Source: an uncultured Actinomycetes bacterium (GTDB lineage: Bacteria > Actinomycetota > Thermoleophilia > UBA2241). Taken from it: a stretch of 64,000 nucleotides of DNA. The stretch is from positions 160,001-224,000 of the forward strand of contig CAVYCN010000002.1 in the NCBI GenBank assembly GCA_963767005.1, written 5' to 3'. The translations under genes were made by a program, and so were the position numbers. The first letter of the stretch is position 1, and every line of letters begins with the position of its first letter. Under the pieces are notes generated by a model. That model searched no databases, was not told the origin of the DNA, and saw only the letters and a program-made list of their open reading frames with translations. Below, piece after piece: positions 14,005 through 29,359 of this stretch.

Positions 14005-14249
14005 GCGCGCGACGAAGTCACGCCTGCCTGAGCGTCAGCGACGTAGTCTCCTGACGGGTCAGGCGCGCGACGAACTCGACCGTCGGCCCAGCTTCGCGGG
14101 TCGACAAGACGGCCAGATACGGGGGTCTCAGGCGGCCAGAGGGCAGCGACGCCGATGCTTGCAGTGACGTCGGCGTCTTGCCACACTCAAGACCAGGAAC
14201 AGCCAGGGCAGGCTCGCGCCTGCGTCCTTCCACACATCACGAGGTCGGC

Positions 14250-16703
14250 ATGTTCGAAGTCCTCTCCAACGAGGAGATCGCTCCTCGCCTGCACCGCCTG
14301 ATCGTCTCGGCGCCGCGCGTGGCCCGCTCGCGCAAGCCCGGCCAGTTCGTCATCGTGCGCGCCGCCCCGGGCGACGAGCGCATCCCCCTGACGATCGCCG
14401 ACGACGACCCCGAAGAGGGCACCATCACGCTCATCATCCAGGCCGTCGGCATCAGCACCGAGCGCATCTGCGCCGTGGCCGCCGGCGGCGAGCTGGCCGA
14501 CGTGGCCGGACCTTTGGGTCAGCCCACCCACATCGCCCGCCTCGGCCGGGTGGTCTGCGTGGGCGGCGGGGCCGGCACCGCCGTGCTCTACCCGCTGGCC
14601 AAGGCCCTGGCCGCCGCCGGCAACGAGCTCATCACGATCATCGGCGGGCGCAGCGCCCCCTACGTGGTGCTGGCCGACGAGCTCGGCGCCTTCTCATCAG
14701 AGCTCTATCTGACGACCGAAGACGGCTCCCTGGGCGAGACCGGCTTTGTCACGGCGCCGCTGGCGCGGCTGCTGGCCGAGACCGGCGAGCGCCATCCGGC
14801 GGCCGTCTATGCCGTCGGTCCGGTGCCCATGATGAAGGCCGTCTGTGCCCTCACCGCCAAGACCGCGACCGCGACCGTGGTCAGCCTCAACCCGCTCATG
14901 GTCGACGGCACCGGCATGTGCGGCGGCTGTCGCGTCACGGTCGGCGGCCAGACCCGCTTCGCCTGCGTCGACGGCCCCGAGTTCGACGGCCTGCTCGTCG
15001 ACTTCGACGAGCTCGCCGGCCGCCAGGCCACCTACCACGAGCTCGACAGCCACGGCTGCCGCCTGGTGGCCGCCGCCGACGCCCTGGTCGAGGCCGACGC
15101 CGCTCCTGTTTCCACCGCCCCGGCCCCGTCCGCCGCGGTCGCCGAGCCTGCCCCTGGCGCGACTCCCAGAGCCGCAGCCGCGACCCCCGCCGCCGCGCCC
15201 GAGCCCGCCCCCGCGACCCCCGAGGTCGAACTGGTCCCCGGCGCCCCCCTGACGGCCAAGCAGCGCATGGCGATCGGCCGCGTCGCCATGCCGGCCCAGG
15301 ACGCCGCCCGGCGCGCCCACAACTTCAGCGAGGTCAACCTCGGCCTGACGGCCGCCGACGCGATCCGCGAGGCCAACCGCTGCCTGGCCTGCAAGAACTC
15401 ACCCTGCGTGGCCGGCTGCCCGGTCGAGGTGCGCATCCCCGCCTTCCTGACCGCCCTGGCGGCCGCCGACTTCGCCGCCGCCGCCCAGCTGCTGCTCACC
15501 GACAACGCCCTGCCGGCCACCACCGGCCGGGTCTGCCCCCAGGAGACCCAGTGCGAGGGCGTCTGCCTGCGCGGCAAGAAGGGCGAGCCCGTGGCGATCG
15601 GCTGGCTCGAGCGCTTCGTGGCCGACTGGGCCGCCGAGCACCTGCCCTTCGAGGTCCCCGAGGTCACGCCCTCCGGCAAGAACGTCGCCGTGGTGGGCGC
15701 CGGCCCCGGTGGGCTGACCGTGGCCGGCGAGCTCGCCCGCGCCGGACACAAGGTCCACGTCTTCGAGGCCTTGCACGACACCGGCGGCGTGCTGCGCTAC
15801 GGCATCCCCGAGTTCCGCCTGCCCAAGAAGATCGTCGATGCCGAGGTCGCCAACCTGCGCCGCCTGGGGGTCGAGATCGAGTGCGACGTGATCGTCGGGC
15901 GCACCCTCACCGTCGACCAGCTCGCCGCCCAGTTCGACGCCGTCTTTGTGGCCAACGGCGCCGGCCTGCCGATGTTCTTAAACGTGCCCGGCGAGAACCT
16001 GAAGGGCGTCTACTCGGCCAACGAGTACCTGACCCGGGTCAACCTCATGGGCGCCTGGCAGGAGCGCGAGGGCGGCACGCCGATCATGCGCGCCGCCCGC
16101 GTCGTGGTCTTCGGCGGCGGCAACGTGGCGATGGACTCGGTGCGCACCGCCAAGCGCCTGGGCGCCGCGGCGGCGATCTGCGCCTACCGGCGCACGCGCG
16201 CCGAGATGCCGGCCCGCATCGAGGAGATCGCTCACGCCGAAGAGGAGGGCATCGACTTCCACTTCCTCGTGGCGCCGCTTGGCATCGAAGGCGACCAGAG
16301 CGGCTGGGTGCGCGCCGTGCGCCTGCAGCGCATGGCGCTCGGCGAGCCCGACGACTCCGGTCGGCGGCGGCCGGTGCCGCTGCCCGGATCCGAGTTCGAG
16401 CTGGCCTGCGACGCCGTGGTCGTGGCCCTGGGCACGGTGGCCAACCCGCTGCTCACCGAGGCCACCCCGCAGATCGCCACCAACCGCTGGGGCAACATCA
16501 CAACCGACGAGCACCACGCCACCAGCCTGCCCGGCGTCTGGGCCGGCGGCGACATCGTGCGCGGCGGCGCCACCGTGATCCTGGCGATGGGCGACGGCAA
16601 GGCCGCGGCCCGCTCGATCGACGCCTACCTGCGCGGCCAGAGCAGCGCGGCGGAGCCGACGCAGGACGGCGGGGCCGGCGCACCGGTCGGCGAGGCGAGC
16701 TGA
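14250..16703 (+). CDS. nfnAB: Fused NfnA-NfnB electron-bifurcating transhydrogenase (SudB/SudA-like)
   Basis: N-terminal half has ERIPLTIAD, GPVPMM and DGTGMCGGCRV...CVDGPEFD. An Ala/Pro linker follows. C-terminal half is GltD-like with RCLAC..PCVAGCP, GRVCPQETQCE, GAGPGG and GGGNVAMD. Confidence 0.9.
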   Translation: MFEVLSNEEIAPRLHRLIVSAPRVARSRKPGQFVIVRAAPGDERIPLTIADDDPEEGTITLIIQAVGISTERICAVAAGGELADVAGPLGQPTHIARLGRVVCVGGGAGTAVLYPLAKALAAAGNELITIIGGRSAPYVVLADELGAFSSELYLTTEDGSLGETGFVTAPLARLLAETGERHPAAVYAVGPVPMMKAVCALTAKTATATVVSLNPLMVDGTGMCGGCRVTVGGQTRFACVDGPEFDGLLVDFDELAGRQATYHELDSHGCRLVAAADALVEADAAPVSTAPAPSAAVAEPAPGATPRAAAATPAAAPEPAPATPEVELVPGAPLTAKQRMAIGRVAMPAQDAARRAHNFSEVNLGLTAADAIREANRCLACKNSPCVAGCPVEVRIPAFLTALAAADFAAAAQLLLTDNALPATTGRVCPQETQCEGVCLRGKKGEPVAIGWLERFVADWAAEHLPFEVPEVTPSGKNVAVVGAGPGGLTVAGELARAGHKVHVFEALHDTGGVLRYGIPEFRLPKKIVDAEVANLRRLGVEIECDVIVGRTLTVDQLAAQFDAVFVANGAGLPMFLNVPGENLKGVYSANEYLTRVNLMGAWQEREGGTPIMRAARVVVFGGGNVAMDSVRTAKRLGAAAAICAYRRTRAEMPARIEEIAHAEEEGIDFHFLVAPLGIEGDQSGWVRAVRLQRMALGEPDDSGRRRPVPLPGSEFELACDAVVVALGTVANPLLTEATPQIATNRWGNITTDEHHATSLPGVWAGGDIVRGGATVILAMGDGKAAARSIDAYLRGQSSAAEPTQDGGAGAPVGEAS

Positions 16704-16843: not shown

Positions 16844-17527
16844 ATGGCCGTCCGCATCCTCGGTCTCGACTGCAGCCCACGCGACGGGAGCAACAGCGGG
16901 CTCCTGCTGACGCATTCCTTCGCACGGCTCGCCGATGCCTATCCCGGCGAGGTCGAGCACGACATCATCACCCTGCGTGAGCTGCACATCGAGGCCTGCC
17001 GGGCCTGCAATATCTGCGGCAAGACCAAGGACGGCAAGTACGTGCCTTGTATCCAGGCGGGCAAGGACGACGTCCAGCCGGTGCTCGACGCCATGGTGGT
17101 CGCCGACGGCATCGTGGTCGCGACGCCCGTGTACTTCGGCCTGCCGTCCGACCTGTTCGCGCGCTTCGTCATGCGGACCCGGGTGCTGCGCCATCAGGAC
17201 TTCCGCTTGGCCGATCGGCCGGTCGGCGTCATGGCGACCGCCGGGCGGCGCTCCGGCGGCGCCGAGACGACCATCCTGGCCACCTGGCTGCCGTTCGTGC
17301 GCAACGGCTGCCTGGTCGTGGGCAACGGCGACGCCACGTCGCAGTTCGGCGCCTACGGCTGGGCCGGCGGGCGCGGCCAGATCCTGACCGACGAATGGGG
17401 CATGGAGCAGGGCTTCCAGACCGCCGAGCGGGTCTTCACGGTGGCCCGCGTGGTGCAAGCCGGAGCCGCCGCGCTGGGCGTCGAGAACGGCATGACGTTC
17501 TCGTACTCGTCGGGCACCCGCTCCTGA
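16844..17527 (+). CDS. Iron-sulfur flavoprotein / flavodoxin-fold FMN reductase
   Basis: CSPR..SNS, CRACNIC...C, ATPVYFG and RSGGAETT motifs. Confidence 0.85.
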   Translation: MAVRILGLDCSPRDGSNSGLLLTHSFARLADAYPGEVEHDIITLRELHIEACRACNICGKTKDGKYVPCIQAGKDDVQPVLDAMVVADGIVVATPVYFGLPSDLFARFVMRTRVLRHQDFRLADRPVGVMATAGRRSGGAETTILATWLPFVRNGCLVVGNGDATSQFGAYGWAGGRGQILTDEWGMEQGFQTAERVFTVARVVQAGAAALGVENGMTFSYSSGTRS

Positions 17528-17559
17528 CCGACGAAGACCACGACAGACTGGTGGAGGAC

Positions 17560-17814
17560 ATGAGCGACGCCGACAAGATCCTCGAGTTCATCCGCGACGA
17601 GGCCGTCGACACGCCGCCCGAGCGCATCGACGCCGACACGTCGCTGTTTCGCGACCAGCTCCTCGACTCGATGAGTCTCACCAGCCTCATCACGTTCCTC
17701 GAGGACGAGTTCGCCATCAAGGTCGGGGCCATGGACGTGGTGTTCGAGAACCTCGACACCGTCAACCACATGCTGGCGTTCATCGAGCGCAAGAAGGCGG
17801 CGGTCGGTGGCTGA
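17560..17814 (+). CDS. Acyl carrier protein (DltC-like)
   Basis: 84 aa, acidic, with LLDSMSL phosphopantetheine site. GGAGG RBS. Confidence 0.85.
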   Translation: MSDADKILEFIRDEAVDTPPERIDADTSLFRDQLLDSMSLTSLITFLEDEFAIKVGAMDVVFENLDTVNHMLAFIERKKAAVGG

Positions 17815-18061
17815 ACCGGCCGCCACGCCGGCGACCGCCATGCGCGGCGACGCGCCGTCGCCCGAACACCTCGCGTCGCCGGCCGACGGCCGCGCGGCCG
17901 TCGCCGACTCCGGCGCCACCGCCCGCCGCGCGTCGCTGCGGGTCGGCTACGTGCTCGGTCTTGCCGTGCAGGTCCTGTTCTGGTTCCTGATCTTCATGGC
18001 GATCGCGGTCGCGGTCGGCGCAGGCGGACACCTCACCGAGTTCCGGTACGTCGGCTTCTAG
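17807..18061 (+). CDS. DltX-like single-TM protein with C-terminal FRYVGF motif
   Basis: One hydrophobic helix, then the terminal hexapeptide F-R-Y-V-G-F, which fits the FxYxxF acyl-shuttle motif. Lies between the ACP and ligase genes. Confidence 0.7.
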   Translation: MAEPAATPATAMRGDAPSPEHLASPADGRAAVADSGATARRASLRVGYVLGLAVQVLFWFLIFMAIAVAVGAGGHLTEFRYVGF

Positions 18062-18077
18062 ACGGCTGCCCGGACCT

Positions 18078-19544
18078 GTGGACAGCGCCGTCGCCACCCT
18101 GCTCGAGCTCGCCGCGGACGATCCGGCGCGGCCGCTCCTGCTCACCGAGGGCCGTACGCTCACTTACGGCGAGTTCGCCGGCCGGGCGGCCAGCCTCGCT
18201 GCCGCCTTGCGGACGGCCGGCCTGGGGCGTGGCGACCGGGTCGCTACCCTGATCGAAGACTACGACGCCTTCTTCCTTTCGATGTTCGCGGTGTGGCTCG
18301 CGGGCGGTGTTCTCGTGCCCCTCAACACGAGCCTGCCCGCAGCCGACGTCGACTGGCTGCTCGACAAGGCGCGGCCGCGCCTGCTACTGGTCACGACCGG
18401 CGCCGCCGGCCCGCGCCGCGGGGTGTCCTGCCTGACCGTCGCGGCCGAGGGGCCCGGCGCCGAGCCCGGCGGCTGCCTGTCGACCGCCGCCGACGAGCTC
18501 GCCATGATCATGTTCACGTCGGGCACGACCGGGGTGCCCAAGGGCGTGTGTCACACGCTGCGCGCGACCTCCGGGAACGCCGGTCGCGTGGCCGGCGTGC
18601 TCGGCCTGAACGCCGCCGACCGCATCTTCATCAACACGCCGCCCTACTTCACGAGCGGCATCTGTCACTTTCTGACGCTCCTGGCGGCCGGCGGCAGCAC
18701 GGTCGGCCGGCGCGGCTTCTTCTTCGGCGACGGCCTGCTCGCCGAGCTGATTGAGCTCGGCTGCACCGGCTTCGGCGGCGCGCCGGCCCACCTCGTGCGG
18801 GTGGTCGGACCGCTCGACGAGGCGCCCGCGACGTCGGGGCTGCGCTTCTGGGTGAGCTCGGGCGACCACCTCGCGCTCGAGACGATCGAGCGTGTCGGCC
18901 GGCTGCTGCCCGACGTACGGCTCTTCAACATGTACGGCCTGACCGAGGTCGGTGGGCGTCTCTGCGTGCTCCCGCCCGACGAGCTCGAGCGGCGCCGGGG
19001 GTCGGTGGGCCGCCCGCTGCCCGGGATGATCGTGACGGTGCGCGACGCGGACGGGCAGGCGCTACCCGACGGCACCGAGGGTGAGCTCTACGTGAGCGGT
19101 CCGCTCCTCATGCAGGCCTACCTCGACGAGCCCGACATCACGGCCGCCACGCTCACCCCGCACGGCCTGCGCACCGGCGACTTCGGCCGCCGCGACGCCG
19201 ACGGCTTCGTGTGGGTCGCGGGCCGCCGCGACGACATCATCAAGCGCGGCGGCGAGAAGGTCTCGATCGTGCACATCCAGGAGGCGCTGCGCGCGCTCGG
19301 CACGTTCGCCGACGTCGCGGTGGTCGCGGCCGACGACGCCATCCTGGGCCACGTGCCGGTGGCCTTCGTCGTCCCGGCCGACGGGCTGCCGCTCAAGCGC
19401 ACGGCGGTGATGCGCGAGCTGCGCACCGTGCTGCCGTCGACCTCGCTGCCGAGCCGCATCGTGCCGCTCGATGAGATCCCGCGCACCGGCTCGGGCAAGG
19501 CGATCCGCGCCGAGTTGCTGCGCCTGGCCGCACGCGACGTGTAA
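18078..19544 (+). CDS. AMP-binding (ANL) acyl-ligase
   Basis: MFTSGTTGVPKG, NMYGLTE, RTGD, GRRDDIIKRGGEKV and PRTGSGK motifs. Confidence 0.9.
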   Translation: MDSAVATLLELAADDPARPLLLTEGRTLTYGEFAGRAASLAAALRTAGLGRGDRVATLIEDYDAFFLSMFAVWLAGGVLVPLNTSLPAADVDWLLDKARPRLLLVTTGAAGPRRGVSCLTVAAEGPGAEPGGCLSTAADELAMIMFTSGTTGVPKGVCHTLRATSGNAGRVAGVLGLNAADRIFINTPPYFTSGICHFLTLLAAGGSTVGRRGFFFGDGLLAELIELGCTGFGGAPAHLVRVVGPLDEAPATSGLRFWVSSGDHLALETIERVGRLLPDVRLFNMYGLTEVGGRLCVLPPDELERRRGSVGRPLPGMIVTVRDADGQALPDGTEGELYVSGPLLMQAYLDEPDITAATLTPHGLRTGDFGRRDADGFVWVAGRRDDIIKRGGEKVSIVHIQEALRALGTFADVAVVAADDAILGHVPVAFVVPADGLPLKRTAVMRELRTVLPSTSLPSRIVPLDEIPRTGSGKAIRAELLRLAARDV

Positions 19545-19553
19545 GGCGGCGTA

Positions 19554-20894
19554 GTGCAGATCTTCTTCAGCTGGATCCTGGTCCCGGTGATCGTCGTGGC
19601 GGTGCCGCTGTTCTGGCTCGTGCTGCGACGCGAGGCGCACCGCCTGTGGTTCCTGATCGTCGGCTCGCTCGCGCTGCTCGCGCTGCTCAACCCGGCCTTC
19701 GCCGTCGTGTCGGTGTGCCTGGTCGTGGCCACGCACCAGCTCGTCGAGCAGTTGCGCGCCAAGCGCCTGTCGGTGGGGCGCGCCGTGCTCATCGGCGTCC
19801 TCGGGGCGATCGTGGTGCTCGCCCTGGGCAAGTACGGCCAGCGCATGGTCGGCGGCCTGTGGGGCACCGACGACTGGGTCTACACGCGGATCGCCATGCC
19901 GCTCGGCGTGAGCTACTTCGCCTTCCGCCTGCTGCAGTACGTCTTCGACCAGGCCCGTGGCGTGCTCACCGAGAACTCGCTGCTGCGCTTGGCCGCCTTT
20001 GTCTGCTTCCTGCCGACCTTCGCCGCCGGTCCCATCGAGACCTACCAGGGCTTCTACGGCAAGCGCAGCACGAGCTTCGACCGCGACCTCTTCTACCAGG
20101 GCCTGCGGCGCATCGCCATCGGCTACTTCAAGAAGGTCTTCGTCGAGAGCTTCTTCCTGGCCATCTACATCGCGCCCGAGGTGCGCGCCCCGCTCACGCC
20201 GGGCTGGCATTTCAGCACGGCACGGCCGCTGCAGGCCGCCGGCTTTGTGATCTTCGCCTTCCTGCGCGCCTACATCGACCTGTCGGCCTACACCGACCTC
20301 GCCATCGGCTTCTCGCGCCTGTTCGGGTTCCGCATCATGGAGAACTTCAACAACCCGCTCCTGAAGCGCAACCTGAGCGAGTTCTGGCGCTCGTGGCACA
20401 TCTCACTGTCGACCTGGTGCCGCAACAACGTGTACTTCCCGGTGTTCGGCGCGACCCGCAAGGTCTGGCTCGGCCTCTACTCGAGCATGATCGTCATGGG
20501 CCTCTGGCACTACGTCGACCTCAACTGGTTCTCGTGGGCCCTGTGGCACGGCACCGGCCTCGTCGTCGTGAGCTGGTGGCTCGCGCGCAAGAAGGCCTTC
20601 CGCAAGGCTCACCGCGGCAACGCTTTCTGGAGCCGCAGCTCGTGGCGTCACGCGTTGCTGTCGCCGCTCTGGTACGTCATGACGTTCTGCTACGTGGCGC
20701 TCGGCTACGCCTTTGTGGGCACGCCCAACATCACGGTCGCCCTGCGTGTGCTGACCGGTGCGATCGCCGGGCCCGTTGTGTGGCTCGCCCGGCACGGCCT
20801 CGAGGGTCTCGTCATGCTGCTCGTCGTGGTCGCCGTGGCCGTCGCGGTCACGGCCGTCGTGACCGCTGTGCGGCGCCGACCGCAGCCGGCCTGA
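19554..20894 (+). CDS. MBOAT O-acyltransferase (DltB/AlgI-like)
   Basis: PLGVSYFAF, AGPI, DLSAYTDLAIG, ENFNNP, EFWRSWHISLSTW and GLWH (catalytic His) motifs. Confidence 0.92.
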   Translation: MQIFFSWILVPVIVVAVPLFWLVLRREAHRLWFLIVGSLALLALLNPAFAVVSVCLVVATHQLVEQLRAKRLSVGRAVLIGVLGAIVVLALGKYGQRMVGGLWGTDDWVYTRIAMPLGVSYFAFRLLQYVFDQARGVLTENSLLRLAAFVCFLPTFAAGPIETYQGFYGKRSTSFDRDLFYQGLRRIAIGYFKKVFVESFFLAIYIAPEVRAPLTPGWHFSTARPLQAAGFVIFAFLRAYIDLSAYTDLAIGFSRLFGFRIMENFNNPLLKRNLSEFWRSWHISLSTWCRNNVYFPVFGATRKVWLGLYSSMIVMGLWHYVDLNWFSWALWHGTGLVVVSWWLARKKAFRKAHRGNAFWSRSSWRHALLSPLWYVMTFCYVALGYAFVGTPNITVALRVLTGAIAGPVVWLARHGLEGLVMLLVVVAVAVAVTAVVTAVRRRPQPA

Positions 20895-21040
20895 GGGGTC
20901 TTTGCGAGGGGGCGGGGGCGCCCGCGGCGGTGTCGCTGCTTGGCAACTTCTGTGAGCATGTGATACTGTGCCGGCTCACGACGTGAGCGGCCCCTGCTGC
21001 CGCCTGTGATCTTGCGCTCGCACGACCCGGAGGCGACGCG

Positions 21041-22021
21041 ATGAAGATCGACAGAGCATTCAGATGTGTGGTCGTTCTTTCGGTCCTTTCGACCCTTCTC
21101 CTTCTCGTCGTCGCCTCGTCGGCGTCGGCGAGCTCGCTCACCAATGCGACGGCCCAGGCGCGGGCGGTCTCCGCGCAGGTGAGCGCCCTCGACCTGCAGG
21201 TCGACCAGACGGTCAACGCCTACGCGGCCGCCGTGCAGCGTCTCACCGCCATTCAGGCGCAGGTGGGCGCGAACCGCGCCGCGCTCAGCCTCGACCGGTA
21301 CCAGCTCACCATGGCCCAGCAGCAGCTCGCCCAGCACCTCGTGCTCGCCTACAAGGGCGGCGGCGACGGCGTGCTCAACGCCGTGTTCCAGGCGGGCAGC
21401 TTCAGCGACCTGCTCACGCGGCTCGACTACGTACAGCACCTGACCGGCGACGACGCGACCCTGATCCAGGCGGTGCGGCAGCACCGCCGTCAACTCGACG
21501 CGACGGGCAGGGCCCTGCAGAAGGAGCTCAAAAGCGCCGAGACGACGGCGGCCGACCTCACCGCCGCGCGCGACCGGGTCGACGGGGAGCTGAGCGCGCG
21601 CCAGGCGCTGCTGCACGGTCTGAAGGACACGGTCGCGCGACTGGTGGCCGCGCAGCGGACGGTGACGCCCGTCGTGACGACATCCGCCAGCACGCCGGCG
21701 CCGCCCTCGACGGCCGGCGACGGCGGCGGCCCCTGGTGGCCGGCGATCAAGGCCGCCGCCGCCGCCGACGGCATCTGGGCCGAGGGCCTCTACCGGCTGA
21801 TGATGGCCGAGTCGGGCGGGTGCTGCACGGCCTCCAACGGGGTCGACCTCGGCCTCTTCCAGTACGCGACCGGCACCTGGAAGGGCGCCTGGAACCCCTG
21901 GCGCTCGGCGAGCATCTTCGACGGCGGCGCCCAGATCAGGGCGACCGCGCTCGCCGTCCACCTGGGCTACGGCCCGGCGTGGTGGCCCACCACGTACCCC
22001 TGGGCCTTCTCGCGCCAGTAG
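21041..22021 (+). CDS. Secreted coiled-coil (PcsB/CwlO-like) cell-wall hydrolase with lysozyme/SLT-like domain
   Basis: Signal peptide, coiled coil containing AGSFSDLLTRLDY, and C-terminal MMAESGG / LGLFQY. Confidence 0.75.
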   Translation: MKIDRAFRCVVVLSVLSTLLLLVVASSASASSLTNATAQARAVSAQVSALDLQVDQTVNAYAAAVQRLTAIQAQVGANRAALSLDRYQLTMAQQQLAQHLVLAYKGGGDGVLNAVFQAGSFSDLLTRLDYVQHLTGDDATLIQAVRQHRRQLDATGRALQKELKSAETTAADLTAARDRVDGELSARQALLHGLKDTVARLVAAQRTVTPVVTTSASTPAPPSTAGDGGGPWWPAIKAAAAADGIWAEGLYRLMMAESGGCCTASNGVDLGLFQYATGTWKGAWNPWRSASIFDGGAQIRATALAVHLGYGPAWWPTTYPWAFSRQ

Positions 22022-22346
22022 GCCGCCGCACAACTCCGTCGTCGGCGTTCGGGCCGGCGTGACTTGGTCGCGCGCCTGGTCCGCGCCGCGCGCCGCTCAC
22101 CCGCCTGAGGCTCCGCCGCACTCGCCCGAGCGCCGCTCGCGCCACCCTCTCCGTCGCACGACGCGACCGAGCCCCAACCTGAGCAGAACGGCCGCGACGG
22201 CCTCGGTAGTCGCTGCGCCGAATCGGGGATAGTAGGCACGATGAGCGGCGGCCGGCCGGCGGCCGAAGGGCAGCGCGGCCGGCGCGGCTCATCGTGAAGG
22301 GGGTGGCCGCACGATCGGCCCATCCTTCGACGGCGAGGGAGTGCAT

Positions 22347-23510
22347 ATGGCATACGACGACAGCAAGCTTGCCGCGCTGGCGGACTTCGGCCAGAGCGTC
22401 TGGCTCGACTTCATCAGCCGCGACATCCTGCGTTCGGGCCGTCTCGACGAGCTCGTCGCGCGGGGCGTGACCGGGATGACCACCAATCCCACGATCTTCC
22501 AGAAGGCGATCGCTCAGGGCGACGCCTACGACGAGGAGATCGCCGAGCTCGCCGAGCAGGGTCGTTCGGCCGCCGAGATCGCCGACGCGCTGATCGTCTC
22601 CGACGTGCGCGCGGCCTGCGACCTGCTGCGCCCGGTCTACGACGGCAGCGCTCACCGCGACGGTTACGTGTCGATCGAAGTGTCGCCCGAGGTCGCCTAC
22701 GACACGCGGGCGACGCTGCGTGAGGCGCGACGCCTGCACGACGCGGTCGGGCGTCCCAATGTCATGGTCAAGATCCCCGGCACGCCGCCCGGGATCGCCG
22801 CCGTCCGCCAGGCCGTCGCGGCCGGCCTGCACATCAACATCACCCTGCTCTTCGCGATCGCCGCCTACGAGCGCGTGATCGACGCCTTCCAGGGCGGACT
22901 CGAGGAGCGCGTCGCCCGGGGCGAGCCGATCGACGACGTGCACTCGGTGGCGAGCTTCTTCGTGTCGCGCATCGACGCGAAGGCCGACCGCGAGATCGAC
23001 GACCGTCTGAGCGGCGAGGTCGACGCCGTGGTGCGCGAGCGGCTCGAGGGCCTGCGCGCCAGCCTCGCTCTGGCCAACGCCCGTCTCGCCTACGGGCGCT
23101 TCAACGAGTCGCTGTCGTCGGACCGCTGGCACCGTCTGGCCGAACGCGGGGCGCACCCGCAACGGCTGCTGTGGGCCAGCACGAGCACCAAGGATCCGCG
23201 ATACGATGATCTGCTGTACGTCGACAACCTGATCGGGCGACGCACCGTCGACACCGTGCCCGAGGAGACGCTCAACGCCTTCCTCGACCACGGCGTGGTC
23301 CGCCGGACGCTCGGCCGCGACGCCGACGACGAGGCCCGCGCCCGGGTGGAGCGGGCGGCGGCCCTCGGGGTCGACCTGCGCACGATCACCGGCGAGCTGC
23401 AGGCCGAGGGCGTGCGTCTGTTCAGCGACTCGTTCGAGGGGCTGCGCGACACCGTCGAACGCAAACGTGCCGAGCTCCTGGCCGGCGAGGAGAGGAGGCT
23501 GAGTGCCTAG
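22347..23510 (+). CDS. tal: Transaldolase
   Basis: GQSVWLD, GMTTNPTIF, VSIEVSP, NVMVKIP, SFFVSRID and LLWASTSTK motifs. Confidence 0.95.
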   Translation: MAYDDSKLAALADFGQSVWLDFISRDILRSGRLDELVARGVTGMTTNPTIFQKAIAQGDAYDEEIAELAEQGRSAAEIADALIVSDVRAACDLLRPVYDGSAHRDGYVSIEVSPEVAYDTRATLREARRLHDAVGRPNVMVKIPGTPPGIAAVRQAVAAGLHINITLLFAIAAYERVIDAFQGGLEERVARGEPIDDVHSVASFFVSRIDAKADREIDDRLSGEVDAVVRERLEGLRASLALANARLAYGRFNESLSSDRWHRLAERGAHPQRLLWASTSTKDPRYDDLLYVDNLIGRRTVDTVPEETLNAFLDHGVVRRTLGRDADDEARARVERAAALGVDLRTITGELQAEGVRLFSDSFEGLRDTVERKRAELLAGEERRLSA

Positions 23511-25182
23511 CGACCCGGTGCTCGAAGCGATCGATCGGCGACTGCAGAGCTTCGACGACGAGCGCTTCGGCGAGCGGCTGTTCGAGCACGACGCGACACT
23601 CTGGAAAGACGACCCGCGACACGGCGCGATCATCGCGCAGGCCCTCGGCTGGCTGACGATCGCCGACGACATGAGGACACGGAGCGGCGACCTGCTCGGC
23701 TTCGCCGCGCAGGTCGCCGCCGAAGGCTACCGCGACGCGGTGCTGCTCGGCATGGGCGGCTCGAGCCTTGCGCCCGAGGTGCTGCGCCGCACCTTCGGGG
23801 TGGCCGACGGCTATCTCGACCTGCGCATCTGCGACTCGACCGACCCGGCCGCCGTGCGCGCCGTCGAGGAGGCGGTCGACCTCGAGCATACGCTGTTCAT
23901 CGTCTCGAGCAAGTCGAGCGGCACCACCGAGACGGCCTCGTTCCACGCCTACTTCCACGAGCGCCTGTGCGGGCTCGTCGGCGACGAGGCGGCCGGCCGC
24001 CACTTCGTGGCGATCACCGATCCCGACACCGCGCTGCACGAGGAGGCGCTGGCCCAGGGCTTTCGCGCCGTCTTTCTGAACCCGCCCGACATCGGCGGGC
24101 GCTACTCGGCCCTGTCGTATTTCGGTCTCGTGCCGGCCGCCCTCATCGGCCTCGACATCGACCGCCTGCTCGAGCGCGCCGCGTCGGTCGCGGCGCAGTG
24201 CCGCGACGGCGGCCCGGCGCGCGAGCACCCGGCCTTCAAGGTCGGCGTCGCGCTGGGCGAGCTCGCCCTCGCCGGCCGCGACAAGGTGACGTTCTTCCTG
24301 TCGCCCGCGATCGCCGCGCTCGGCGCCTGGCTCGAGCAGCTCCTGGCCGAGAGCACGGGCAAGGAGGGTACCGGTCTCGTGCCGATCGACGGCGAGCCGC
24401 CCGGCCCGCCCGAGGCCTACGGTGAGGACAGGGTGTTCGTGTACCTCGCCCTCGAGGGCGAGTCCGACGAGCGCCGTGGCGAGGCGCTGCAGGCGCTCGC
24501 CGCCGCCGGGCAGCCGACCATGACGCTGACGCTCAGCGACCTCTGGGACGTGGGCGCCGAATTCGTGCGCTGGGAGATGGCCGTGGCGGCCGCCGGCGCG
24601 GTGCTCGGCATCGACCCCTTCGACCAGCCCAACGTTCAGGAGAGCAAGGACAACACCAGACGGCTGCTCGCCGTCTACGAGGCCGAGGGCAGCCTGCCGG
24701 CGCCGCCCACGGCGGCCGGCCGGCCGCTCACCGTGGCGGTCGGCGACCCCGGCCTCCGCGACGCGCTGCGCGGGCTGCTCGGCGTGGTGCGGCCCGGCGA
24801 CTACGTGGCGCTGCAGGCCTACGTGCCGCCGGGCGAGCGCCACCAGCGCATCCTGCAGGGCGTCAGGCTTCTGCTGCGCGACCGCTTCCACGTGGCCACG
24901 ACGCTGGGCTACGGGCCCCGCTTCCTGCACTCGACCGGCCAGCTCCACAAGGGCGGCCGGCCCGACGGCGTGTTCCTGCAGCTCACCTGCGGCGAGCGCG
25001 GCGATCTGCCGATCCCGGGGCAGCCCTACACGTTCGGGCTCCTCGTGCAGGCGCAGGCGCGCGGCGATCTCGAGGCGCTCGCCTCGCGCGGACTGCGCGT
25101 GCTGTCGGTCGACCTCGGCTCCGAGCCGCTGGCCGGCCTCACGACCCTGGGCGGCGCCGTGGCGGAGCTGCTGCGGGGCTGA
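23503..25182 (+). CDS. pgi: Glucose-6-phosphate isomerase
   Basis: GMGGSSL, SSKSSGTTE, IGGRYSALS, EQLLAESTGK, PFDQPNVQESK and HSTGQLHKGG motifs. Confidence 0.92.
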   Translation: MPSDPVLEAIDRRLQSFDDERFGERLFEHDATLWKDDPRHGAIIAQALGWLTIADDMRTRSGDLLGFAAQVAAEGYRDAVLLGMGGSSLAPEVLRRTFGVADGYLDLRICDSTDPAAVRAVEEAVDLEHTLFIVSSKSSGTTETASFHAYFHERLCGLVGDEAAGRHFVAITDPDTALHEEALAQGFRAVFLNPPDIGGRYSALSYFGLVPAALIGLDIDRLLERAASVAAQCRDGGPAREHPAFKVGVALGELALAGRDKVTFFLSPAIAALGAWLEQLLAESTGKEGTGLVPIDGEPPGPPEAYGEDRVFVYLALEGESDERRGEALQALAAAGQPTMTLTLSDLWDVGAEFVRWEMAVAAAGAVLGIDPFDQPNVQESKDNTRRLLAVYEAEGSLPAPPTAAGRPLTVAVGDPGLRDALRGLLGVVRPGDYVALQAYVPPGERHQRILQGVRLLLRDRFHVATTLGYGPRFLHSTGQLHKGGRPDGVFLQLTCGERGDLPIPGQPYTFGLLVQAQARGDLEALASRGLRVLSVDLGSEPLAGLTTLGGAVAELLRG

Positions 25183-25266
25183 CCGAGCACGGCGACGAGG
25201 CGGCGGCCGGCTTTGAGCCGGCCGCCGCCCGCGCCTCGACACCCGACGAGACAAAGGAGACGGCAC

Positions 25267-26166
25267 ATGGAACTGGCGATGGTCGGCCTCGGTCGCATGG
25301 GCGGCAACATGGCGCGGCGCTTGCTGCGCGGCGGGCACCGCGTCGTCGTCTGGAACCGCACGTTCGCCAAGGCGCAGGAGCTCGAGAGCGCGGGCGCCGA
25401 GGCGGTCGAGCGGCTTGAGGACGTGCCCGGCAAGCTCACGGCGCCGCGCGCGATCTGGGTGATGCTGCCGTACGGAGCTCCTACAGACGAGGCCATCGAC
25501 GCGCTCGTGCCGCACCTCGACCGCAACGACGTCGTGATCGACGGCGGCAACTCGCCCTATCAGCACGACATCGAGCGCGGCGCCCGGCTCGAGACGCAGG
25601 GCCTCCGCTACCTCGACGCCGGTACGAGCGGCGGCGTGTGGGGGCTCGAGGTCGGCTACTGCCTGATGGTGGGCGGCGACCGCAGCGCCTTCGAGCAGAT
25701 CGAGCCGGCGCTCGCCACGCTGGCGCCGCCCGGCCACGGCTACGAGTACTGTGGCGGCCACGGCGCCGGTCACTTCGTGAAGATGGTCCACAACGGCATC
25801 GAGTACGGCATGATGCAGGCCTACGGCGAGGGCTTCGAGCTGCTCGCGGCGAGCGGCTACGACCTCGACCTCTCGTCGATCGCCGACCTCTGGAACCAGG
25901 GCAGCGTGGTGCGCTCGTGGCTGCTCGAGCTGGCCGTCGACGCCTTCCGCAAGGACCCCGGCCTCGAGCAGATCAGCGGCTACGTCGAGGACACCGGCGA
26001 GGGCCGCTGGACGGTGCAGCAGGCGATCGAGCGCGGCGTGCCCATGCCGGTGATCGCCCTGTCGCTGTTCATGCGCTTCCGCTCGCGGCAGGACGACTCG
26101 TTCTCGGGCAAGGTGCTGGCCGCGCTGCGCAACGAGTTCGGCGGTCACGCCGTGAAGGCCAGATGA
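25267..26166 (+). CDS. gnd: 6-phosphogluconate dehydrogenase (short form)
   Basis: [26 protein letters not shown] and ALRNEFGGH motifs. Confidence 0.95.
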
Positions 26167-26239
26167 ACGGCGCCGGACTGCGCCCGCCGCGTGGCGGGCG
26201 GCCGGGCGGTCAAGCGCGGCCGGCGAGGGACGGACGGCC

Positions 26240-27853
26240 ATGGACGTGATCGGCTACGACGAGTCCGAGACGCCGCTGCGCGAGGCGCCCGGCACGACGC
26301 CGGTCGAGTCGCCGCTCACCCTCGAGCGTCGTCCCGAGCCCTGCACGATCGTGCTGTTCGGCGTGACCGGCGACCTCGCCAGTCGCAAGCTGATCCCGGC
26401 TCTGTACGACCTCGCCTGCCACAACGTGCTGCCGCGGCGCTTCGCCCTGGTCGGCTACGGGCGCAAGGCCATGAGCGACCCCGACATGAAAGCGCTCTCG
26501 CGCGAGGCCATCGACAGCTTCTTCGGCTCCGGCACGGCCGAGACGCGCACCTGTAACGACATGCTCGACACGGTGCACTACGTGCAGGGCGAGTTCAACG
26601 ACGCGGCCGGCTACGAGCGCCTCGCCGACACGCTCGACGAGCTCGATCGCGACAAGCACACGGCCGGCAACCGCATCTTCTACCTCGCCACGCCGCCGAG
26701 CCTGTTCCCGGTCATCATCGAGCGGCTCGGCGCCGCCGGCCTGAACCGCGGCGGCGCGACCGGCGCCCCCGAGGAGCACGGCGAGGACCATGGCTGGGTG
26801 CGCGCCGTGATCGAGAAGCCGTTCGGCAGCGACCTCGACGGCGCCCGCGCGCTGAACGCCGTCGTGCGCAAGGTCTTCGACGAGAGCCAGGTGTACCGCA
26901 TCGACCACTATCTGGCGAAGGAGACGGTGCAGAACATCCTGGTCTTCCGCTTCGCCAACGGCATCTTCGAGCCGGTCTGGAACCGGCGCTACGTCGACCA
27001 CGTGCAGATCACGGCGGCCGAGACGCTCGGCGTCGAGCACCGCGGCGCCTACTACGAGGAGTCCGGCGCGCTGCGCGACATGATCCAGAACCACCTGCTG
27101 CAGCTCCTCACCCTGACGGCCATGGAGCCGCCGGTCGCCTTCGACGCCGACGCCGTGCGCGACGAGAAGGTCAAGGTGATCAGGGCGATCAGGCCGATCC
27201 CGATCGAGCGCGTCGACCAGTACGCCGTGCGCGGCCAGTACGTCGAGGGCACGATCGGCGGCGAGATCGTGCCGGGCTACCGCCAGGAGGAACGCGTGGC
27301 GCCCGACTCGACGGTCGAGACCTTCGCCGCCGTCAAGTTCCTGATCGACAACTGGCGCTGGCAGGGCGTGCCGTTCTACCTGCGCACCGGCAAGCGCCTG
27401 CCGGGTCACGTGACCGAGATCGCCATCCAGTTCAAGCGGCCGCCGTTCCTGCTGTTCAAGGACGCCGACGTGCCGGGCGACCGCGTACCGGCCAACCTGC
27501 TGATCGGCCACATCCAGCCGCGCGAGGGTTTCTCGCTGCGGTTCGAGGCCAAGGTGCCGGGCCAGGCCATCCGCCTGCAGCCCGTCGAGATGGACTTCGA
27601 CTACGGCTCGCAGCTCTCCGAGCTGCCCTTCAGCGCCTACGAGACGCTGCTGCTCGACTGCATGGTCGGCGACCAGACGCTGTTCAACCGCGACGACCAG
27701 GTCGAGGAGGCCTGGCGCGTGGTGAACCCGATCCTCGAAGCGTGGTACCGCTCGGGTCCCGGGGCCGTGTCGATCTACGAGGCCGGCACGTGGGGCCCCG
27801 AGGCCGCCGAAGGTCTCGTGGCGAGCGACGGCCGCGCCTGGCGGCGCCCGTGA
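26240..27853 (+). CDS. zwf: Glucose-6-phosphate 1-dehydrogenase
   Basis: [22 protein letters not shown] and [13 protein letters not shown] motifs. Confidence 0.96.
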
Positions 27854-28620
27854 GCGCCGCGCTCGGCACCTCGCTCGAGGTGCTGCCCGACGCCGCCGCG
27901 GTGGCCCGCCGCGGCGCCGACCTGCTGGCCGCCGCCGCGCAGGAGGCCGCCGCGGCGCGCGGCGCCTGCACCGTGGCCTTGTCGGGCGGCGACTCGCCGC
28001 GGCCGCTCTACGCGCTGCTCGCCCGCCAGCAGTTCGCCCAGAAGATCCCCTGGCGGCGCGTGCACCTGTACTGGGGCGACGAGCGCTGCGTGCCGCCCGA
28101 TAGCGAGCGCAGCAACTACGCCATGGCGCGCGAGGCCTTCATCCGCCACGTGCCGATCCCCGAGCAGAACGTGCACCGCATGCGCGGCGAGGACGACCCC
28201 GACGAGGCGGCGAGGGCGTACGAACGGCTGCTCGCGCAGCCGCCCGCCCTCGCCGCCCACTCCACCGCCGACCTGCCGGTGATCGACCTCGTACTGCTCG
28301 GTCTCGGCCCCGACGGCCACACCGCGTCGCTGTTCCCGCACTCGCCGGCGCTCGCCGTCGAAGATCGGCTCTGCGTCGCGAACGAGGGCGAGGGCACGGG
28401 GCAGAGGTTGACCATGACCTACCCGGTCGTGAATGCCGCGCGACGCGTCGTGTTCGTCGTGACCGGCGCCGCCAAGGCCGGCATGGTGGCCGAGGTGCTC
28501 GAGGGCCTGCGCGCGCCCGAGGCGATCCCCGCCCAGGGGGTCGCGCCGGTTCACGGCGCCCTCACCTGGCTGCTCGACGAGGCCGCGGCGAGCGAGCTGA
28601 GCGAGCGGGGAGGCGGCTGA
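27850..28620 (+). CDS. pgl: 6-phosphogluconolactonase
   Basis: [16 protein letters not shown] and [14 protein letters not shown] motifs. GTGA overlap with zwf. Confidence 0.93.
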
Positions 28621-28939: not shown

Positions 28940-29322
28940 CGAGCAAGCCAGGTGGCCGCGGCGCGGCCGCGTCTTCCGTCTCCTCGGAGCGGACGAGGCG
29001 CCGCGTCGAGGAAAGTCCGGACACCACAGAGCAGGGCGCTGGATAACGTCCAGGCGGCGAAAGCCGACGGCAGCGCAACAGAGAGCAGACCGCCAGCGGC
29101 CCCTTCGGGGGTGCGGGCAAGGGTGAAACGGTGAGGTAAGAGCTCACCAGCGGTCCTGGCGACAGGCCGGCTCGGCAAGCCCCGCCCGGTGCAAGACCAA
29201 ATAGGGAGGCGTTCGAGGGTTGCTCGCCCGAAGCCTCCGGGTCGGTCGCACGAGCCCCGCGGCAACGCGGTGGCCCAGATGGATGGCCACTCAACGACAG
29301 AATCCGGCTTATCGGCTTGCTG
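28940..29322 (+). ncRNA. rnpB: RNase P RNA, class A
   Basis: GAGGAAAGTCCGGACACC, AACAGAGAGCAGACCGCC, AGGGTGAAACGGTGAGGTAAGAGC, GTGCAAGACCAAATAG and ACAGAATCCGGCTTA hallmarks. P1 pairing AGCAAGCC/GGCTTGCT. Confidence 0.97.
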
Positions 29323-29324
29323 AC

Positions 29325-29359
29325 GAAAGCCCCGCCGCGCAGCTGACGGCGGGGCTTTC
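29325..29359 (+). terminator. rnpB intrinsic terminator
   Basis: GAAAGCCCCGCCG...CGGCGGGGCTTTC. Confidence 0.75.

Follow-up and report, generated by a model that had tools for sequence, protein, structure and literature searches.

Among the MBOAT-SGNH pathways, Dlt moves its acyl group by a tyrosine-shuttle mechanism, summarised in PMC12148441 after Schultz et al. (2023), and it is the sole characterised pathway of this kind with both a carrier and a free membrane microprotein; the other MBOAT/SGNH pathways are said there to lack a carrier and a DltX-like microprotein. The same text describes the PatAB and AlgIJ O-acetyltransferases as using an acyl-coenzyme A (acyl-CoA) donor, having no carrier and bearing the shuttle motif fused to the MBOAT. 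A different combination, a stand-alone ligase with a free acyl carrier protein (ACP) and one tailoring enzyme, is found in VinN, AfcQ and BolO systems (PMC11253843, PMC12186527 and PMC7756342). Here we analyse a five-gene cassette in a 64,000-nucleotide stretch, called the window below, of an uncultured bacterium of the class Thermoleophilia (contig CAVYCN010000002.1, positions 160,001 to 224,000). In our best explanation, to which as a whole we give about an even chance, the cassette would encode a Dlt-type relay that exports a non-amino, probably di-acidic acyl group onto a surface glycan.

All five open reading frames (ORFs) of the cassette, at window positions 16844-20894, are real and co-oriented on the forward strand:

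16844-17527, + strand: flavoprotein, 227 aa; PF03358 FMN_red match (E 7e-19), Cx2Cx2Cx10C motif, flavodoxin fold
17560-17814, + strand: stand-alone ACP, 84 aa; PF00550 PP-binding match (E 5e-8), LLDSM with phosphopantetheine site Ser37
17807-18061, + strand: DltX-analogous membrane microprotein, 84 aa; one hydrophobic stretch, ends LTEFRYVGF, no Pfam family
18078-19544, + strand: stand-alone ANL ligase of its own subfamily, 488 aa; AMP-binding
19554-20894, + strand: DltB-like MBOAT, 446 aa; MBOAT match, no C-terminal FxYxxF tail

The distances between successive genes are 32, -8, 16 and 9 bp, much as an initial annotation of the window had described (five co-oriented parts with overlaps or short gaps), and the GC content at third codon positions is 0.92-0.96 in each frame. 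The host genome is 3.44 Mb in size and 100% complete, with the window on its contig C2, and those homologues that carry names are from Thermoleophilia. The cassette had also been read as Dlt-like in architecture; ligase, ACP, tyrosine microprotein and MBOAT all hold, and by analogy we are highly confident that the relay would be built as in Dlt.

Related loci were collected in two scans. A scan of species genomes, selected on ligase pocket motifs, yielded 85 loci, and the 80 kept comprised 78 titled Thermoleophilia, Actinomycetes or Actinomycetota, one from Christensenellaceae and one from Nitrospinota. After 26 loci with short flanks had been set aside, the ACP was present in 54 of the remaining 54 fully flanked loci, the peptide in 54, the MBOAT in 53, an SGNH-like protein in 52, the flavoprotein in 51 and an SLT-like protein in 38; these counts show conservation and not independent events, because the loci are kin, some share a genome and the scan was motif-selected. 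A metagenome scan queried with a two-domain form of the flavoprotein gave 13 loci, nine of them apparently close kin. The ACP directly follows the two-domain flavoprotein in 12 of these, and the family ligase (9), the FRYVGF peptide (9), the MBOAT (6) and the family SGNH protein (5) are also present; most loci without a given part stop at contig ends. The Atlas cluster of the two-domain flavoprotein is mostly Pseudomonadota, and we judge the metagenome contigs to be proteobacterial-type, with neighbours that look alphaproteobacterial.

The microprotein bears the putative shuttle residue, Tyr81 (codon 18047-18049). Among the peptide matches in the 80 loci, 75/76 end F-R-Y-V-x-[FY], the remaining one being a broken frame, and 71/76 end FRYVGF. 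F-R-Y-V is invariant in 20/20 aligned microproteins, the FRYVGF tail is identical in 9/13 metagenome loci, and the 8-nt overlap of the microprotein ORF with the ACP stop recurs in relatives such as L020. As a control for chance, an [FY]xYxxF-like motif closes four of the ~48,000 stop-to-stop frames in the genome, and the exact end after a hydrophobic helix occurs only here. The initial annotation would have given up its reading had the small ORF or its tyrosine not been conserved in homologous clusters, and both are conserved across phyla. The microprotein has no Pfam match to DltX; as a separate microprotein with the C-terminal FXYXXF of the Dlt pathway, it is by motif a candidate DltX analogue. 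Another free shuttle-like peptide is encoded on the Leptolinea sp. HRD-7 plasmid AP024711.1 (Chloroflexota; L150:7271-8870), where a 47-aa membrane microprotein ending WIYQGF lies directly before an MBOAT; the annotation shows neither a ligase nor an ACP nor an SGNH gene in the vicinity.

The MBOAT matches only DltB entries in the PDB (E 4e-39) and scored 139 bits against the DltB model TIGR04091 (cut-off 375). Its His282 and His319 are invariant in 40/40 homologues. The protein is tail-less, ending ...RRRPQPA, and the tail pattern is absent from 67/69 MBOAT homologues. The ACP scored 28.9 bits (cut-off 68) and 21.3 bits (cut-off 52.35) against two DltC models, which places it outside the DltC family.

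No DltD/SGNH gene had been noticed nearby in the initial annotation, and indeed none was seen within window positions 8000-30000, but the pathway is not SGNH-less. Relatives carry a membrane-anchored SGNH-like protein of 340-400 aa, mostly between ligase and MBOAT, and the genome under study has its own copies in trans, together with a protein of a second type:

C2:10180-11301: intact SGNH copy, in trans
C12:155107-156189: intact SGNH copy, in trans
C4:387812-389146: intact SGNH copy, in trans
C10:58991-60010: second-type SGNH protein, same genome

The three copies (E 1e-128, 4e-120 and 2e-81) belong to a family that keeps G-G-S87 and D331-x-x-H334 in 23/23 sequences from four lineages and that aligns with the last 85 columns of a five-sequence DltD profile (probability 85.5, E 6e-6); its GDSL matches are all sub-threshold. 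In a quick tree of 52 rows, from which two sister pairs alone were used, the C2 copy pairs as sister with the SGNH that L043 carries in its operon (SH-aLRT 99), and the sisters of the C12 copy are the SGNH proteins encoded next to the cassettes of L048 and L051 (SH-aLRT 100). Moreover, the genes around the C12 copy (Fur-like, SGNH, histidine phosphatase, cobalamin) are the same as at locus L025, except that the five cassette genes are absent. With three intact copies elsewhere in the genome, the relay appears complete, its last step occurring in trans. The MBOAT histidine, the tyrosine hexapeptide and the SGNH GGS and DxxH motifs together match the MBOAT-SGNH tyrosine-shuttle systems by motif.

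The initial annotation had suggested searching the genome for DltD, AlgJ and PatB homologues; the search found the distantly DltD-like SGNH family above and no DltD, the PF04914 profile matching nothing in the genome. The sole Pfam GDSL match over its cut-off (C4:231616-232203) was rejected as a partner, being short and without a membrane anchor, and an AlgX candidate was the same gene, at sub-threshold score only. RecA matches to the C2 SGNH protein were rejected as summed weak repeats. Some Thermoleophilia loci carry tandem SGNH paralogues, five or more around one MBOAT (L029:2117-8872, L121), which suggests several acceptors or positions. The 2.7-Mb Christensenellaceae genome G041 has eleven MBOAT matches and two separate peptide-SGNH-MBOAT sets of the cassette family (L129:7855-10425 and L130:14819-17448), with one ligase-ACP pair serving both.

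The ligase is not DltA. It scored 100.9 bits against the DltA model TIGR01734, whose cut-off is 559.85, and it is 23-24% identical to two DltA-type proteins, compared with 32% to a VinN-type ligase retaining the amine-binding Asp. The initial annotation had noted that it reads TPPYFTSG where DltA and nonribosomal peptide synthetase (NRPS) domains have this Asp, and the alignment agrees: the motif is there, with Thr192 opposite the Asp of FDLS when compared with two DltA-type proteins and opposite that of FDVS when compared with an NRPS domain. We aligned 15 family ligases, seven of which were found via the flavoprotein and hence are free of pocket-motif selection. The Asp site is Thr in 8, Met in 7 and Asp in none, an acidic residue occurs at no code position, and Ser193, His197, Gly233, Ser261, Gly293, Arg294 and Lys474 are invariant in 15/15. 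A D-alanine-activating ligase with a dltD elsewhere, the finding named in that annotation as fatal to its reading, was not encountered, as the ligase falls far below the DltA cut-off and no protein matches the DltD family.

The best PDB match for ligase residues 165-341 is VinN (E 3e-12). Ser261 and Arg294 align by sequence with VinN Ser299 and Arg331, which are proposed to recognise the second carboxylate of the substrate (PMC7756342 and PMC12186527), while VinN Asp230 binds the substrate amine (PMC11253843). In VinN-type enzymes, according to the latter source, Asp230 is present, residue 231 is bulky and the beta13-beta14 loop is shortened, whereas the ligase has Thr192, Ser193 and a full-length loop. 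The loss of the amine site together with the retention of Ser and Arg suggests a di-acid that lacks an amino group. One independent hint at a dicarboxylate cargo comes from the Christensenellaceae locus (L130), where a LysR gene and a tctCBA transporter lie between ligase and ACP; according to PMC8556258, the tct family binds dicarboxylates nearly exclusively, and sulfolactate uptake is listed as well. Taken together, we are highly confident that the cargo is not D-alanine and think it very probable that it is not an amino acid, and from the pocket residues we consider a di-acid the probable cargo. The proposal of carrier-dependent export of a non-amino acyl group, made when the window was first annotated, is thereby supported as an interpretation, with Thr or Met at position 192 and no acidic code position.

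The flavoprotein had been labelled an Fe-S flavoprotein. It matches the FMN_red family and has a flavodoxin fold, and the Fe-S part of the label rests on four cysteines (C52, C55, C58 and C69), which are invariant in 16/16 aligned sequences. The Isf family is defined by a compact four-cysteine motif binding a 4Fe-4S cluster, together with FMN. With its four invariant cysteines and flavodoxin fold, the flavoprotein may be related to this iron-sulfur flavoprotein family; no Isf entry was among the matches listed. Like Isf and the flavone reductase FLR (7D38), the flavoprotein combines the flavodoxin fold with an N-terminal Cx2Cx2C; unlike them, it has its fourth cysteine ten residues further on, and its structural identity to FLR is 23%. 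The best fold matches of its model (pLDDT 72) were tied at Z 18.1, 17.9, 17.4 and 17.1 (SP1951, flavone reductase, RosB), and the closest solved sequence, 7D38 (E 2e-11), matched over residues 4-106 only. FLR is an ene-reductase (PMC7862272).

Within the family the flavoprotein is 63-89% identical, and it occurs in 19/24 genomes, as against 20/24 for the ligase, the same four genomes lacking both. A check on its conservation in homologous clusters, recommended in the initial annotation, found it in 51/54 fully flanked loci. In the Nitrospinota genome, a two-domain flavoprotein is divergent from an adjacent ACP and MBOAT of the cassette family. The flavoprotein is not strictly obligatory, and we consider it probable that it acts on the acyl group. 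In genome G022, a heliorhodopsin gene (L080:6379-7149, - strand) occupies its usual place. A nonulosonic-acid locus with a two-domain flavoprotein (L133:9992-16908) also encodes an AAC(3)-family acyltransferase, an ANL-carrier fusion and a PhyH dioxygenase; the flavoprotein there may act in N-acyl tailoring of the sugar and could reveal flavoprotein chemistry.

Orthologs of the ligase were found in 20/24 genomes of the same Thermoleophilia family and in 0/16 from other families of the class. Across 400 genomes sampled from the phylum, ortholog-level scores were confined to the same family (~860 bits vs <=277 elsewhere). Outside the phylum, the Christensenellaceae genome carries the gene set with the same FRYVGF tail and the Nitrospinota genome carries it only partly; the Christensenellaceae locus type was found in 1/401 genomes of its order. 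Neither the ligase nor the two-domain flavoprotein had an ortholog in the plasmid searches, in which the best matches to the ligase were AsnB-ACP-ligase-NadE clusters, which retain the Asp. When representatives clustered at 50% identity were searched with the ligase, multi-module NRPS proteins swamped the results, and no stand-alone relatives from further afield emerged.

Evidence on the acceptor comes from the gene content of the genome and from the genes around the cassettes. The 100% complete genome contains no TagF and no sulfatase/LtaS family match, and it has four LCP genes, which together make classical teichoic acids unlikely. Downstream of the MBOAT lies a further gene on the same strand:

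21041-22021, + strand: secreted coiled-coil and SLT/lysozyme-like protein; CC_PcsB match (E 3e-7), ESGG...GLFQY motif

A homologue of this SLT-like protein is found within 8 kb, before or after the cassette, in 38/54 loci; one homologue has a weak SLT match (E 0.037), and a promoter-like site (20940-20967) precedes the gene in the window. The SLT-like gene is linked to the cassette by association only and probably has its own promoter. An M15 peptidase gene precedes the ligase in G041. The SLT-like genes and the M15 peptidase beside the cassettes hint at peptidoglycan. Two proteobacterial-type loci (L132, L135) lie amid polysaccharide genes. The acceptor is likely a glycan hydroxyl. A single other paralogue, encoded at G000 C2:135562-136959, shares the catalytic domain of the SLT-like protein.

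Other neighbours were identified in the window. An 841-aa ORF (14178-16703, + strand) joins a dihydroorotate-dehydrogenase-B-like NAD/Fe-S domain to Fer4_20 and Pyr_redox_2; we take it to be a fused NfnAB/SudBA-type transhydrogenase, and it precedes the cassette, by 140 bp in the window, an arrangement shared with only two relatives. Further downstream are a pentose-phosphate cluster (22341-28620, + strand), which, judged from translations, encodes transaldolase, a phosphoglucose-isomerase-like protein, 6-phosphogluconate dehydrogenase, glucose-6-phosphate dehydrogenase and lactonase, and a class A RNase P RNA (28940-29327, + strand; 268 bits).

By analogy with Dlt and PatAB (PMC12148441), we infer the following relay, including its substrate, the role of the flavoprotein and the acceptor. 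The ligase would adenylate a small acid, its distal anion held by Arg294 and Ser261, and load it onto Ser37 of the ACP; a C3-C5 dicarboxylate or hydroxy-dicarboxylate would fit, as would a sulfo-acid. The flavoprotein would alter the oxidation state of the acyl group on the ACP, or make the free acid; such a role would explain why a carrier is used in place of a ready acyl-CoA. The MBOAT, with His319, would hand the acyl group to microprotein residue Tyr81 at the outer face, from where a membrane-anchored in-trans SGNH protein (the C2, C12 or C4 copy) would take it on the GGS serine and esterify a glycan hydroxyl. In this bacterium the acceptor glycan would be peptidoglycan or a wall polymer anchored by LCP proteins; in diderms it would be a surface polysaccharide.

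Like DltXABCD, this system combines a ligase, a carrier, a tail-less MBOAT, a separate FxYxxF membrane microprotein and an SGNH protein with GxS and DxxH. Unlike DltXABCD, its ligase has no amine-binding Asp, its ACP, MBOAT and SGNH proteins score below the Dlt family cut-offs, its microprotein has no family match, a flavoprotein is added, several SGNH paralogues exist and are unlinked here, no TagF/LtaS-type family match is found, and diderm lineages carry it. Since the tests for DltA, DltC and DltD fail, the cassette would work like Dlt without being a member of it. With PatAB and AlgIJ it shares the MBOAT, the SGNH protein with a tyrosine shuttle motif and a proposed glycan acceptor, and it differs in all three of the features given above for those systems in PMC12148441, with carrier and ligase present in 54/54 loci. 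In common with VinN, AfcQ and BolO, it has a stand-alone ligase, a free ACP and one putative tailoring enzyme, with Ser, Met and Arg at aligned pocket positions, and VinN is the top PDB match to its pocket segment; it departs from them in having Thr/Met for Asp230, Ser for Phe231, a loop longer by one residue and a flavoprotein where they have a pyridoxal-phosphate (PLP) decarboxylase, and its product would go to an MBOAT.

Several observations weigh against this best explanation. The Arg loop of the ligase is one residue longer than that of VinN, so that Arg294 may not sit as it does there, and a fold search with the ligase model (pLDDT 83) ranked feruloyl-CoA, MenE and MatB ligases first, VinN not being among the matches listed. 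The connection to tct comes from one locus, whose tctA and SGNH genes are frameshifted. For the SGNH family, neither Pfam nor NCBIfam gave a match above cut-off, and no PDB sequence matched. No flavoprotein ortholog was found in G022 (95% complete) or G041, which have the same ligase pocket, and the L133 flavoprotein lies in a nonulosonate locus without an MBOAT. In addition, the loci are not independent, most being kin and the genome scan having picked them on pocket motifs. The missing orthologs, the L133 locus and the generic FMN-reductase fold with its tied best matches would suit export of an unmodified di-acid such as succinate or malate, with the flavoprotein an accessory redox protein (oxidative stress or electron carrier) that leaves the acyl group untouched. 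We regard this as quite unlikely, given that the flavoprotein directly precedes the ACP in 12/13 metagenome loci of a different phylum and architecture and is 63-89% identical within the family, and that succinyl-CoA and malonyl-CoA already exist, which would make a dedicated carrier superfluous.

The cargo could instead be a neutral hydroxy or keto acid of the lactate, glycerate, 3-hydroxybutyrate and pyruvate class moved by the same relay, with Arg294, Ser193 and His197 binding its hydroxyl or carbonyl group and the flavoprotein converting between the keto and the hydroxy form. In adenylation domains for hydroxy and keto acids, a small or hydrophobic residue replaces Asp235 (PMC11253843), Met stands at the Asp site in 7/15 ligases, and the ligase loop is full length, unlike that of VinN; however, an Arg that is invariant among four lineages and lies in a small polar pocket is more simply a counter-charge, and tctCBA lies within one locus, so that we think a neutral acid unlikely. 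An amino acid (D-alanine, glycine or aspartate) activated through a non-canonical pocket, which would make the cassette a functional Dlt equivalent, seems improbable to us: DltB is the only solved relative of the MBOAT, the tail fits FXYXXF (PMC12148441), and a passage on McyG in PMC11253843 mentions some adenylation domains without the Asp, but the ligase is closer to a VinN-type ligase that keeps the Asp than to DltA-type proteins, it misses the DltA cut-off by a wide interval (100.9 vs 559.85 bits), an acidic code residue occurs in 0/15 ligases, and a TagF/LtaS-type acceptor pathway was not found in the genome. Finally, this locus and its nearest relative, L042, have no adjacent SGNH gene, and polymer-synthesis genes are not conserved beside Thermoleophilia cassettes, as might be expected if the acceptor were a lipid, lipoprotein or secreted small molecule or if the pathway worked SGNH-free in this genome. 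We consider this very improbable in view of the SGNH proteins in 52/54 loci, the three intact copies in trans, the polysaccharide genes around L132 and L135, and the peptidoglycan-hydrolase-like genes that flank the cassette in 38/54 loci and G041.

A Dlt-type relay for a non-amino, probably di-acidic acyl group is thus the reading we prefer. Literature searches (Thermoleophilia MBOAT, dlt-like ACP/MBOAT, AMP-binding clusters, FRYVGF) returned no description of it, judged largely by title and abstract, although Schultz et al. (2023) and its supplements, which they did not cover, may list such clusters. The cassette is a variant of the MBOAT-SGNH tyrosine shuttle and a counter-example to the statement on carrier and microprotein in PMC12148441. 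As both of these parts occur with a non-D-alanine cargo, in monoderms and diderms, the relay would be a general export route for acyl groups unavailable as CoA esters. More tentatively, and we think it less likely than not, the cassettes of Actinomycetota, Bacillota, Nitrospinota and Proteobacteria may form one cross-phylum pathway with carrier and microprotein, in which a special anionic acyl group is built on the ACP via an Fe-S flavoprotein and exported by the tyrosine shuttle onto peptidoglycan or surface glycans; such a pathway would mirror Dlt with the charge reversed and make an envelope substituent not yet described, which may control the lytic transglycosylase encoded next to the cassette. 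If the cargo is di-acidic, the cell surface would become more negative, opposite to the effect of Dlt. From the relay one would expect an envelope substituent, so far unrecognised, in soil proteobacteria as well as in an abundant, uncultured family of actinobacteria.

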